24,170 nucleotides of DNA from NCBI GenBank assembly GCA_964016885.1, contig CAXHJY010000524.1:1-24170 (forward strand). Reading direction: 5' to 3'. The stretch comes from Eledone cirrhosa. Taxonomy: Eukaryota. The notes beneath the pieces are model-generated. The model saw only the letters and a list, made by a program, of their open reading frames with translations, did no database searches and was not told the DNA's origin. Positions 7,515 to 13,924 of this stretch are shown piece by piece. The first letter of the stretch is position 1, and each line of letters starts with the position of its first letter. Both the position numbers and the translations under genes were made by a program.

Positions 7515-7783
7515 ATAAACGGAAAAAATGAAACGATATTTCATTTCCCACTCTTAGTACGGCTGTTACTTAAATATAAGTATGTACACGTACATACATA
7601 TATGTATACCGACGTACAGTAGTATGTATATATATATATACATACATGCACACATATATATATGCACGTATGGATTCACCGAACATTTATTATAATGCTC
7701 GGTGTGTTTGTAAACAAACATCCCGTATTAAGCCGTAGTGTCTAGCAACCACCGTTGCTCGTTTGTTCAACACTGACAAAGGA

Positions 7784-7826
7784 ACGCTGTACTAGTTTCA
7801 AGCTTGTTAGCTATCGTCAGCAACGT
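7784..7826 (-). ncRNA. Type I hammerhead ribozyme, unit 1
   Basis: Minus strand ACGTTG-CTGACGA-T-AGCT(AACA)AGCT-T-GAAAC-TA-GTA^CAGCGT. Stem I ACGUUG/CAGCGU; palindromic stem III ACTAGT. Confidence 0.88.
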
Positions 7827-8205
7827 ATACCTTCTTGCCAGATTGTTGAACGTATATACTTACCTTATGCATATTAACGGCTGAGTAGCCCAATTTGCAT
7901 ATCGAGTGGGTTAATCGGCCGGGTGCACCGAAAACGATAAACGGAAAAAATGAAACGATATTTCATTTCCCACTCTTAGTACGGCTGTTACTTAAATATA
8001 AGTATGTACACGTACATACATATATGTATACCGACGTACAGTAGTATGTATATATATATATACATACATGCACACATATATATATGCACGTATGGATTCA
8101 CCGAACATTTATTATAATGCTCGGTGTGTTTGTAAACAAACATCCCGTATTAAGCCGTAGTGTCTAGCAACCACCGTTGCTCGTTTGTTCAACACTGACA
8201 AAGGA

Positions 8206-8248
8206 ACGCTGTACTAGTTTCAAGCTTGTTAGCTATCGTCAGCAACGT
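8206..8248 (-). ncRNA. Type I hammerhead ribozyme, unit 2
   Basis: Identical to the unit 1 motif. Confidence 0.88.
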
Positions 8249-8627
8249 ATACCTTCTTGCCAGATTGTTGAACGTATATACTTACCTTATGCATATTAAC
8301 GGCTGAGTAGCCCAATTTGCATATCGAGTGGGTTAATCGGCCGGGTGCACCGAAAACGATAAACGGAAAAAATGAAACGATATTTCATTTCCCACTCTTA
8401 GTACGGCTGTTACTTAAATATAAGTATGTACACGTACATACATATATGTATACCGACGTACAGTAGTATGTATATATATATATACATACATGCACACATA
8501 TATATATGCACGTATGGATTCACCGAACATTTATTATAATGCTCGGTGTGTTTGTAAACAAACATCCCGTATTAAGCCGTAGTGTCTAGCAACCACCGTT
8601 GCTCGTTTGTTCAACACTGACAAAGGA

Positions 8628-8670
8628 ACGCTGTACTAGTTTCAAGCTTGTTAGCTATCGTCAGCAACGT
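8628..8670 (-). ncRNA. Type I hammerhead ribozyme, unit 3
   Basis: Identical to the unit 1 motif. Confidence 0.88.
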
Positions 8671-9049
8671 ATACCTTCTTGCCAGATTGTTGAACGTATA
8701 TACTTACCTTATGCATATTAACGGCTGAGTAGCCCAATTTGCATATCGAGTGGGTTAATCTGCCGGGTGCACCGAAAACGATAAACGGAAAAAATGAAAC
8801 GATATTTCATTTCCCACTCTTAGTACGGCTGTTACTTAAATATAAGTATGTACACGTACATACATATATGTATACCGACGTACAGTAGTATGTATATATA
8901 TATATACATACATGCACACATATATATATGCACGTATGGATTCACCGAACATTTATTATAATGCTCGGTGTGTTTGTAAACAAACATCCCGTATTAAGCC
9001 GTAGTGTCTAGCAACCACCGTTGCTCGTTTGTTCAACACTGACAAAGGA

Positions 9050-9092
9050 ACGCTGTACTAGTTTCAAGCTTGTTAGCTATCGTCAGCAACGT
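9050..9092 (-). ncRNA. Type I hammerhead ribozyme, unit 4
   Basis: Identical to the unit 1 motif. Confidence 0.88.
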
Positions 9093-9476
9093 ATACCTTC
9101 TTGCCAGATTGTTGAACGTATATACTTACCTTATGCATATTAACGGCTGAGTAGCCCAATTTGCATATCGAGTGGGTTAATCGGCCGGGTGCACCGAAAA
9201 CGATAAACGGAAAAAATGAAACGATATTTCATTTCCCACTCTTAGTACGGCTGTTACTTAAATATAAGTATGTACACGTACATACATATATGTATACCGA
9301 CGTACAGTAGTATGTATATATATATATACATACATGCACACATATATATATGCACGTATGGATTAACCCACTCGATATGCAAAGGTATACGTTGCTGACG
9401 ATATGCAAATTGGGCTACTCAGCCGTTAATATGCATAAGGTAAGTATATACGTTCAACAATCTGGCAAGAAGGTAT

Positions 9477-10151: not shown

Positions 10152-10719
10152 ATATATATATATATATACATATATATATATATATATATATACATATATA
10201 TATATATACATATATATATATATATATACATATATATATATATATATGTATATATATACACATATATATATATATATACACATATATATACATATATACA
10301 TATACACACATATATATATATATATATATATATATATATATATACATATATATATGCATATATATATACATATATATATACATATATATATATATATATA
10401 TATATATATATATATATATATATATATATACATATATATATATATATATATATACATATATATATGCATATATATATACATATATATATACATATATATA
10501 TATATATATATATACATATATATATGCATATATATATGCATATATATATACATATATATATATATATATACATATATATATACATATATATATATATATA
10601 TATACATATATATATGCATATATATATACATATATATATACATATATATATACATATATATATACATATATATATACATATATATATACATATATATATA
10701 CATATATATATATATATAT
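10152..10719. repeat. (TA)n microsatellite with TACA/TGCA interruptions
   Basis: Directly visible. Confidence 0.98.
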
Positions 10720-10773
10720 ATTAAGAGAGTAAAACAAAGAATCCTTTAATACATCAAAAGTTTTTATTAGCCG
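10720..10773 (-). repeat. Inverted partial pseudo-LTR (54 bp) of PLE copy 2
   Basis: ATTAAGAGAGTAAAACAAAGAATCCTTTAATACATCAAAAGTTTTTATTAGCCG is a perfect reverse complement of 13771-13824. Confidence 0.95.
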
Positions 10774-11822
10774 TGCGCTCACGCATTGGTGTTGGTTTGG
10801 CTGGATCTTGTTCTAGTAATGTTGCTCCTACTGATCCTATCATTGGCCTTAATCCTCTTGTAGGGATTCTGGACAACAGCGGATCTACTAGAGGTAGAAA
10901 CTATAATAGGCATAATGTAATTATGGCTGATTCTATGAATGCTGCTTCAACTATTCCCGATAGTAACCCTAGTCTCGACGGTGGGACTTTTGATAGAGGT
11001 AGGGTCGATAAGAATAAAAATAAAAATAGAAGGCGATTGAATACTTATTTCAACCCGCCATATAACCAGGATGTATCAACTAATATCCCTAGGTCTTTCT
11101 TCACTATCCTGGAGAAAAATGTCCCTCCTTCTCACAAATACCATGGTATTTTTAATAAAAATGTTATTAAACTATCATTCTCTACCACCCCTAATATTAG
11201 TTCTCATTTAGCTAGCACTAATAATAGGAAGATTAGGGATGGATTCTCCTCTCTGCAGACTAATAGTCTGAATGCATCGGACAATGCTTTACCACCAGAA
11301 CAGTCCTTATCTAATAGAGGTCCTAGGTGCAATACATCACCACTCGAGCCAACCAATAACACCCGGAAGTGCAATTGTAGAGTGAGTGCTAACTGCCCTC
11401 TAAACGGTAACTGCCTTTCTAAGAACATTGTCTATGCTTGCGAGGTTATAACTAATTCCTCTAAAGGAACATATATAGGATCTACTTCAAACACTTTTAA
11501 GACTAGGTTTAACTCTCATATCTCTAACTTCAAACATATTAGGTTTAAGAATTCTACCTCTCTAGCGCATTATATCTGGGATCTTAAGGGAGCTTGTATA
11601 CCATATAGCCTTAACTGGAGTTTAGTAGCCCGATCTAACCACCTTTCTGCACATAGTAAGTTTTGTAATCTCTGTATACTTGAGACACACTCTATTATTT
11701 TCTCTAGCGTACCCTTACTGAATAGAAAGTCTGAGATATTCTCTTCTTGCCCCCATGCAATTTCTAATTCTTACTTTTATTATAAACCCAAATGTTCTAG
11801 TAGTACAAATCGTACCCATTAG
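10773..11822 (+). CDS. PLE ORF C-terminal part: linker, Cys motif and GIY-YIG endonuclease (Naiad-like), 5'-truncated, uninterrupted
   Basis: [22 protein letters not shown], CNCRxxxxCPLxGxC, IVY...YIGST, KTRFNSH, LAHYIW, CNLCILE, LLNRKSE..SCPH. The GTG start is an artefact of the truncation junction. Confidence 0.88.
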
Positions 11823-13326
11823 CAGATATATTCCATTACTTAGTTTTTTGTTTGGGTTCTTTTGTTTGCCAACACTATTATTACCATTGGTTTTTGATGA
11901 CTCTTCATTCTAGCTCTCATAATCATTTGGCTACTGTACCATATCTATGTCTTCACTATTACACCTTGTTAGTATACATAAGATTACACACGTTATTATC
12001 TTTATATATTCTTTTATTATCATTAACTTTAATTTTTAATTTTAACATTATTTTTATTTTTATTTTTAATTCTATTTCTATTTTTATTTCTAAGTCTATT
12101 CTGATTTATCTATCGAAACCCCCCCCCCCTTCTCCCCCCCCCCATGCACGCATAAACTTATTGTCAACCCCTCTAGATTGAATATGATTATATTAACCCC
12201 CCCCCCCTCTTTTATGCTCCGTTCTATTATTTATTATAGTATATCGAATATATTTTATGCCACTTCGCACCCTCCATATATTTTGTCACTTCTGTCCCCA
12301 TTAGCCTACCTTAACTCTACTTAAGTCAGTTTTTTAGATATCGTTGCGTATATGATAGTGTAATTTTATTCCTTTTTGTAAACATTTGTAACGATACATT
12401 AAAGTTTATATACTTTAATGACTTAGACTATAGCTAATTTTATACTACCTTATCGGACGGGTTTGATATTTTTAATATTAATTTATCAGATAGGGTTTGG
12501 AGTCATTTAAAATGATCGCTTTCCTTGGTGTTTACCAAATTTCTTAATGCACGCGAGGCCTAAGTGTGTATACATTTGCTTTGTTTTGTAATTTCCGGTT
12601 GATTGTATTTATCTGTTTTATTTACTACTCACTGTCTGGCTTCGTTCACTCATCCACACATGTCTGTCTACTAACCTTGAAATTATAAGTATTTATTTAT
12701 ATATTATATGCCAATTTTTAAAATATATTACATTATGATATAGATCCTTATTACTTACCGTTTATTATATATAACATTAAGATAGTTAAACTTTATATTT
12801 TTTAATATTTTAATATTTTAATATTTTAATATTGTAATATGTAACATTATGGTATTTAGACTTTACATATCATGTTAGATGTCTATATTTTTTCTGTAAC
12901 AACATATTTTTTCTGTAACATCATAATTGTTCCCTGTACCAATATAGTTTTTTTTTAGTATTATTGTATTATATTATATGATTGATATTTCCCCATTTAT
13001 TATGTAACTCAGTATGAATCATGTTGTACATATTGTTTATGGTAATTGTTAATATAATGTTAACAATTTATCATTGTATTTCACTGTGACATCTATATTG
13101 TTTCTATAAATTAACCGGAGATTATATATATTCTACTTTATTATATTGTATTGTATTATATAATTTTGTTGTTTATTATTTATTATAAGTGTTTCTTGTA
13201 ATTATTGCCTCATGTATATTGGGTAGATGTATTAGCATTATTTTCACTATTACCATGCTTATTTTTGATATTTTTGATGTTCAAACTTCCAATAGGGCTT
13301 AATTTCTGTGTAATAGAAAATAGATA

Positions 13327-13396
13327 TGTGTGTGTGTGTGTGTGTGTGTGTGTGTGTGTGTGTGTGTGTGTGTGTGTGTGTGTGTGTGTGTGTGTG
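13327..13396. repeat. (TG)n microsatellite expanded inside PLE copy 2
   Basis: Pure TG run; the homologous site in copy 1 (~1930-1975) is short and interrupted. Confidence 0.95.
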
Positions 13397-13733
13397 CGCA
13401 CATATATACATGTATATATTGTACCTTTTGATTTTTAATTTTTAATTTGGAATTTTAATGTTGGTATAGATATATTATTATTATAATGTATTATACTGTG
13501 TTATATATAATTCTTGCTCTATATAACCAAATTTGTTTAGATTTAAGTTGGTTACTTTGGACTATATTTGTAATATGGTTCTTAATGTTATCTACATCCT
13601 TAGTTATTATAATTTTATTATTTTTATCTTCATTTTTATTATCGTATATCTTTGTAAGACATTAGTGTATGTAAACTCCATATTCTTCAGAGTTTCTGGC
13701 TTGTATCTGCCGAAATTACCTCTTGTTGTTTTG

Positions 13734-13778
13734 ATTGCCCTGATGAGTCCTTAATAGGACGAAACATTGTCGGCTAAT
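13734..13778 (+). ncRNA. Minimal type I hammerhead ribozyme of PLE copy 2 (canonical GUC triplet, cleavage after 13771)
   Basis: ATTGCC-CTGATGA-GTCCT(TAAT)AGGAC-GAAAC-ATT-GTC^GGC-T-AAT. Confidence 0.9.
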
Positions 13779-13924
13779 AAAAACTTTTGATGTATTAAAG
13801 GATTCTTTGTTTTACTCTCTTAATTTTTCGGCTCTGTTTAACTGCATTGAGCTATACCTTTTACTGTCATTTCTATAATACGAAGAGGGTGTTTGACTCA
13901 AACACGCTCCAGTATTCTAATCCT

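Follow-up and report, generated by a model that had tools for sequence, protein, structure and literature searches.

Penelope-like elements (PLEs) have already been proposed as the helper of retrozymes, from the co-occurrence of the two and from homology to the PLE pseudo-long terminal repeat (pseudo-LTR, pLTR) (PMC7229834; PMC7761336; bioRxiv 10.64898/2026.07.22.740005). The PLE tail, called unique to PLEs, proved in vitro to be the segment that separates two internal start sites of reverse transcriptase (RT); the same work reported nicking and extension of both target strands, a requirement for RNA 3' of the start sites and a predicted dimer (PMC11167929). The start sites need no homology to the target (PMC3846280; PMC8557442; PMC11167929), the tail is optional on one of the inverted pLTRs (PMC3846280), and almost all families of the Hydra clade insert in (TA)n (PMC8557442). 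We analyzed a 24,170-nt stretch of Eledone cirrhosa DNA (contig CAXHJY010000524.1 of a 3.0-Gb animal assembly, hereafter the window), in which two separate insertions, an array of 422-nt hammerhead-bearing units and a PLE, lie between TA tracts. The array is a non-LTR retrozyme. Retrozyme insertions carried the two-start, tail-out scar of PLEs, and it is likely (probability of about 0.85) that they were copied in trans by a PLE protein with RT and GIY-YIG nuclease, probably of the Hydra type.

Paired 3' ends of the retrozymes and the neighboring PLE

The 422-nt unit is tandem, non-coding, low in GC and inside the size range of about 150-450 bp that marks non-LTR retrozymes, with no LTR structure and no open reading frame (ORF) of 100 aa except TA-tract frames, and the units in the window were 99.7% alike. 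Folded as a circle, it gave a stable predicted structure (z of about -8.9 against 40 shuffles). Hammerhead cores were present in every full unit (9483 and 9905 on the plus strand; 9086, 8664, 8242 and 7820 on the minus strand), and the pattern search found the core, stems I and II and a palindromic helix III in 6/6 full copies, with U-U at the base of stem II; no Rfam hammerhead match to the array was among the matches listed. As the initial annotation had described, both inserts lie in TA tracts as head-to-head, tail-out inversions, and all four of their outer ends are 3' ends in the ribozyme sense (Table 1). The same annotation had the ends merging into TA by microhomology. Overlap with (TA)n does exist but its extent was overstated: judged against the element's own continuation in tandem copies, it amounted to 3 nt on the left and 5 nt on the right of the array, and to 2 nt on the left and 1 nt on the right of the PLE, where the final AT of 'ATCCTTAT' belongs to the target DNA. 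The array arms were joined over GATT, and the PLE consisted of a plus arm spanning 10774-13925 and a minus arm (10720-10773) that was the exact reverse complement of 13771-13824.

The array hammerhead pattern gave 26,105 exact matches genome-wide (control, 0). A sample of the 40 best of 523 candidates was merged into 37 loci, including the window; tail-out inversion was found in 29 of them and head-out inversion in none. Among 64 typed 3' ends, 59 lay at unit position about 5 (site A) or about 64 (site B), 59 nt apart, and 51 had a TA-rich flank, as compared with 8% of random 20-mers in TA-rich loci. The pattern noticed in the window holds across the genome as well. Script typing of the inverted loci yielded 23 A+B, one B+B and one A+A pair, and four loci with one odd end. 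After review, in which the A+A case was dropped because it runs off the fetched stretch and L086 was read as B+A, 24 mixed pairs stood against a single same-site pair (B+B; p=1.5e-6). When the first 19 array clusters were taken in genome order, 13 were read as tail-out, and the six with both ends typed were all mixed, one of them doubtful. The 3' ends were fixed and the 5' ends variable, as in dispersed, retrotransposed copies. Diverged subfamilies (L141:1867, L150:9318, L254-L275), with units of 430-540 nt and 72-85% identity, retained both end positions where typed. Contigs of four runs on L148 held array relatives (X6 and X7) and one opposite-strand joint (X6), the PLE part being uncovered.

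The same arrangement was found in the PLE family of the window, in which 26 of 37 independent copies were inverted by reading. Every script-typed inverted pair (37/37) combined one short end with one long end, 100 nt apart and equivalent to 13824 and 13924 of the window; four duplicate loci were excluded from this count, and the L118 pair, which joins two separate copies, is to be discounted. As 23 of the pairs came from loci selected on the long end, the 14 not so selected are the stricter set, and all of these were mixed (14/14, p=1.2e-4). One PLE insertion was present four times in a tandem segmental repeat of roughly 10 kb on C4 (L097, L098, L136, L123).

A second retrozyme family, with a 310-nt unit (L120:2272-4685; L237-L253), resembles the 422-nt family only in the hammerhead core. 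It gave 16,397 motif matches, and many of its arrays were nearly invariant. The first 17 clusters in genome order included 13 tail-out ones, and its end pairs were 12 mixed (unit 126-139 with unit 163-170) and none the same. This family was found by a pattern query, and the control, a long interspersed nuclear element (LINE), by a protein query. A 5'-truncated copy of this LINE, which we take to be CR1-type from an RT match and a 3' short repeat, lies at window 3394-5801 (minus strand). TA followed 29 of its 30 3' ends, all at a single fixed end position, and none of the 16 copies with the 5' end in view, three of them with little readable flank, was inverted (Fisher p=5e-8). In having two fixed ends and frequent inversions, where the LINE has one end and none (0/16), the retrozyme does not behave as a LINE-dependent short interspersed nuclear element (SINE). 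Because the LINE also targets (TA)n, the target is not diagnostic of PLEs, and the shared (TA)n targeting, which the annotation had treated as a common signature, loses that role; it is the two-start inversion, not the TA target, that points to a PLE. We regard PLE-type mobilization of the retrozyme as highly probable.

Candidate helpers

By motif match to published Hydra-type elements (PMC8557442), the neighbor is a 5'-truncated Hydra-type PLE with endonuclease (EN+). The copy in the window has lost its RT through 5' truncation; its GIY-YIG match (E 0.0016) falls under Pfam's cut-off, and no GIY-YIG profile match was reported for the full-length protein. Its hammerhead (13734-13778) matched Rfam RF00163 at 31.7 bits (E 2.3e-4), under the 34-bit gathering score. 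Full-length copies elsewhere form a unit of 4,862 nt with intact 915-codon frames, a single ORF with RT (YRDD motif read from the sequence) and C-terminal GIY-YIG. They show RWR, DKT, CxCx5C, CxxC and CxH motifs and no CCHH, a (TA)n target, and a pLTR with hammerhead, partial tandems, inverted arm and tail. Several of the 98 scored protein matches were 94-98% identical without a stop, and none of the 200 homologues at E<=1e-20 was informatively named. An asparagine-rich insertion of ~140 aa separates RT and nuclease in this ORF (L139:2990-5734) and is missing from the second family, Y, described below; N-rich inserts have been described in rotifer PLEs (PMC3846280). An older copy of the neighboring family, 75-87% identical and ending at the long site in TA, occupies window 1-2466 (plus strand), with a SINE-like insert at about 455-645.

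The annotation had taken this neighbor and the array as a putative pair of autonomous element and parasite. We find it doubtful that the 422-nt retrozyme has its helper in the neighboring family, which is one candidate among several. Array and PLE are both young (array copies being 99-100% alike and PLE ends 100% alike), intact frames exist in the PLE family, and a U-rich stretch followed by a GC hairpin comes after the long end in both; however, the tails differ (59 nt in the retrozyme, 100 nt in the neighbor), as do the hammerheads at stem II (U-U against G-C), and the two have no primary sequence similarity beyond TA runs, the annotation likewise having seen none outside the hammerhead core. 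Other Hydra-type families are, moreover, also two-ended. One of them, family Y (L314-L321; L284-L313), about 40% identical to the neighbor in protein, is likewise young: it has numerous copies at 99% identity and many intact frames of 758 codons, and it gave 30,860 motif matches against 2,910 for the neighbor, counted with different patterns. Arrays adjoined family Y copies (2/8 loci) as well as those of the neighbor (3/20). Adjacency as evidence of pairing was rejected, as arrays flank both families at similar rates and other Hydra-type families exist, one with many intact frames. The hammerhead matches of family Y included many tiny palindromic stumps whose center lies immediately 5' of the ribozyme.

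At least six hammerhead-bearing pLTR-type families had two ends in TA; a PLE frame was tied directly to the neighbor and family Y, and to the others by nearby fragments or form only. The hammerhead of the 310-nt family agreed with that of family Y at 25/28 letters, and that of the 422-nt family matched neither PLE. The 422-nt unit had no pLTR homology to the neighbor or family Y, the other families being compared as fragments. Tail-to-tail similarity was not significant in 6/6 pairs, the best being neighbor against family Y (p=0.052). In families X and U, the pLTR end breaks off within the tail and passes straight into retrozyme sequence (L148:8150-8810; L248:1305-1964); these joints may be template switches, which could name the helper, or insertions with target deletion.

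A helper outside the PLEs is very improbable. The LINE, or another non-PLE RT, would have to mobilize the retrozyme and produce the inversions by twin priming. The LINE is highly active, with 150 scored copies showing 100% identity over the C-terminal 100 aa, and inserts in (TA)n with 3' microhomology, but its one fixed end and uninverted copies speak against it. Twin priming by LINEs inverts the 5' part only, without two fixed outward 3' ends. LINEs are named among possible retrozyme helpers (PMC7229834).

Origin of the two arms and possible capture of the template

The insertions combine fixed paired ends, inversion, TA flanks and near-identical multimers, and the two arms of an insertion share one haplotype. 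For 10 of 13 insertions of the 310-nt family, counting ties, the closest sequence was the insertion's own opposite arm (0.08% vs 0.8%). In the 422-nt family the own arm was nearest in 10 of 26, about one being expected by chance. One circle or one homogeneous source array as template for both arms fits these values.

We propose that a tandem retrozyme transcript would self-cleave and circularize, and that the PLE protein, probably a dimer, would bind structure 3' of the two fixed start sites and nick both strands of a (TA)n tract. From a single RNA, one complementary DNA (cDNA) would be initiated at the short site and another at the long site; repeated laps of the circle would yield multimers, and microhomology would join the two cDNA 3' ends. 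The central proposal of the annotation, that a PLE-type RT/GIY-YIG enzyme nicks both strands and that two separately primed cDNAs are joined internally, fits the genome-wide tables, the LINE control and the in vitro work (PMC11167929). Its further idea of priming by microhomology at UA-rich RNA sites is not supported, since the starts are two fixed RNA positions, one with a 1-nt overlap.

5' ends showed no excess at the hammerhead cut, which agrees with a template that is uncut or circular. Stops at the cut numbered six matches with foreign letters (five true truncations) among 2,910 intact matches, and two control positions, counted with laxer filters, had 14 and 10. The stop of the 54-nt PLE arm of the window at the predicted cut was treated as chance in the absence of such genome-wide enrichment.

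The second arm might alternatively arise by fold-back or self-priming of one cDNA rather than by a second target priming, a form of an earlier idea (PMC3846280). Some near-palindromic junctions in family Y and the haplotype shared by both arms would suit this. At the PLE loci L107, L121, L126, L140 and L143, however, each arm holds sequence absent from the other, with unique sequence in the short-end arm and the tail in the long-end arm alone. Neither arm is thus a copy of the other, and fold-back, to which we give little credence, survives only as a minor route. Least probable of all, the spread or expansion of the arrays as satellite DNA by recombination among TA tracts could draw on three loci with long arrays of about 10 to over 20 units at 93-94% identity (L084, L091, L096) and on the preprint's preference for local tandem amplification (bioRxiv 10.64898/2026.07.22.740005), but it explains later growth of some arrays only, and not the fixed, strand-specific 3' ends with variable 5' ends, the different inversion junction at each locus or the template-jump junctions.

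For PLE-mediated copying, how the template is recognized can be outlined tentatively. Retrozyme circles without sequence kinship to any PLE may capture a PLE dimer by RNA shape alone, each subunit priming one nicked strand at its own site and both rolling round one circle. As the bound structure lies 3' of the start sites, this anchor would not be copied until the second lap, and this would account for the parasite's need to be tandem or circular. Candidate cues for such capture are a GC hairpin that follows the long site and a GAGY motif located about 20-28 nt beyond the short site, both found post hoc and to be taken as leads only. A GC hairpin started 6-11 nt after the long end in the neighbor, family Y and both retrozymes (4/4; background 4-13% of positions). 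In six pLTR families an RCTC..GAGY hairpin lies immediately 3' of the short end, and the neighbor and family Z had the same GCTC..GAGC hairpin after both start sites; in the neighbor it opens the tail, and full-length copies have it again immediately 3' of the long site. In the retrozymes, GAGY lay 20-24 nt after A (background 4-8%) and was paired to RCTC beyond B. One pair of this helix showed a two-sided change in 16 of 107 distinct segments, which was probably one event.

Several points weigh against copying by a PLE protein or limit the case for it. RCTC..GAGY was absent as a local hairpin at the short ends (site A) of the retrozymes. No similarity was found between the 422-nt unit and the full-length neighboring PLE beyond TA runs, and alignments of its tail region were not significant (p=0.17 against the neighbor, 0.44 against family Y). 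In 16 of 26 insertions of the 422-nt family the own arm was not the nearest, older copies of this family showed no shared haplotype, and the three long arrays named above probably also grew at the DNA level in a satellite-like manner. The 37 array loci, drawn from the best candidates, favor young, long copies, and one LINE family served as the sole control. In vitro, no start-site difference between strands was seen, so that the rule of one site per arm was not reproduced there (PMC11167929).

The window and its comparison with described systems

The features of the two insertions are listed in Table 1. Elsewhere in the window, the truncated end of another hammerhead-bearing family lies in a TA tract at 15907-16308 (minus strand; core 16058-16044), with relatives at L076, L083, L110 and L133. 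Two TA-flanked elements of 608 bp, 98% identical, were found at 14609-15216 and 17565-18174, with a further copy in L146; no hammerhead motif was found in these window elements. A 245-codon frame at 22796-23533 (minus strand) had no Pfam match; from a motif in it, we presume that it is the nuclease end of a different, CCHH-type PLE clade. Rfam microRNA matches over TA-rich hairpins of the window were rejected, all being far under the gathering scores.

Table 1. Positions of the retrozyme array, the neighboring PLE and their TA-rich flanks in the window
Feature	Position	Strand	Basis
(TA)n-rich tract, target flank left of array	5801..7514	none	
Left arm of retrozyme array, 4.4 units of 422 nt in tandem; its outer 3' end is at B, the long start site (unit position 64)	7515..9364	-	
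59-nt tail between start sites A and B, only on the outer end of the array left arm	7515..7573	-	
Array arm junction: 4-nt microhomology, two short template jumps (unit 85-107, 168-189, back to 97)	9361..9403	+	
Right arm of retrozyme array, 1.9 units; its outer 3' end is at A, the short start site (unit position 5)	9361..10151	+	
Type I hammerhead motif of one array unit; predicted cut after 9935	9899..9941	+	pattern; cleavage predicted
(TA)n-rich tract between array and PLE, two independent insertions	10152..10719	none	
PLE left arm, 54 nt; outer 3' end at short start site (= 13824)	10720..10773	-	
3' part of Hydra-type PLE ORF: N-rich linker, CxCx5C motif, GIY-YIG nuclease	10774..11822	+	
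Long AT-rich PLE 3' untranslated region, 1.9 kb	11823..13733	+	
Minimal hammerhead, type I, in PLE pLTR; cut predicted after 13771	13734..13778	+	
100-nt PLE tail between short and long start sites	13825..13925	+	
(TA)n-rich tract, target flank right of PLE	13926..14608	none	

The array resembles the metazoan non-LTR retrozymes: both consist of tandem non-coding units a few hundred nt long, with low GC and a type I hammerhead motif in every unit, and both co-occur with PLEs (PMC7229834; PMC7761336; bioRxiv 10.64898/2026.07.22.740005). It differs from these accounts, in the accessible text of which none of the following is described, in the tail-out inversion, the two fixed start sites and the (TA)n target. 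The words 'tail', 'target site' and 'junction' are absent from the main text of the preprint (10.64898/2026.07.22.740005), and no published report of a tail or inversion scar for retrozymes was found in a search whose coverage mostly excluded subscription journals. The 422-nt family had no detected pLTR homology, in contrast to 24 of 57 Xenopus families with transposable element matches in the preprint.

The scar itself is that of the PLE tail and inverted pLTR, with an inverted 5'-truncated arm and the tail on one of two arms (PMC3846280; PMC8557442; PMC11167929). The published tails are 30-40 nt, whereas those found here are 100 nt (neighbor), about 68 nt (family Y), and 59 and about 26-37 nt (retrozymes). 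Unlike in the published descriptions, the one-site-per-arm rule was counted here, and it extends to non-coding tandem elements. The neighbor matches the EN+ PLEs of the Hydra clade in RW(K/R), DKT, the CxCx5C linker, the lack of CCHH, CxxC and CxH around catalytic E and N, the hammerhead and (TA)n, but its unit of about 4.9 kb, with a 1.9-kb 3' untranslated region and an N-rich linker, exceeds the under 3 kb of that clade (PMC8557442). Putatively non-autonomous Chlamys elements such as MRC1 are likewise non-coding, multicopy head-to-tail insertions ascribed to a PLE; at the 3' end, MRC1-type elements are similar to their autonomous family, and hammerheads are lacking in most Chlamys elements (PMC8557442), whereas the 422-nt retrozyme has a hammerhead and no such kinship.

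A scar called unique to PLEs that marks two unrelated retrozyme families of high copy number, but not a LINE inserting into the same target, constitutes mechanistic evidence. The two-end, tail-out scar offers a simple rule by which tandem repeats of any genome can be assigned to PLE mobilization, the count of one site per arm limits the ways in which PLEs could assemble inverted insertions, and start sites A and B are nucleotide-level predictions for the existing in vitro assay. A non-coding circle of 300-400 nt that a PLE protein would write into TA tracts as multimers is also of interest for RNA-templated gene insertion. Both elements are of known kinds and the link between them is already in print; the evidence from the scar, set against a control, appears to be new.

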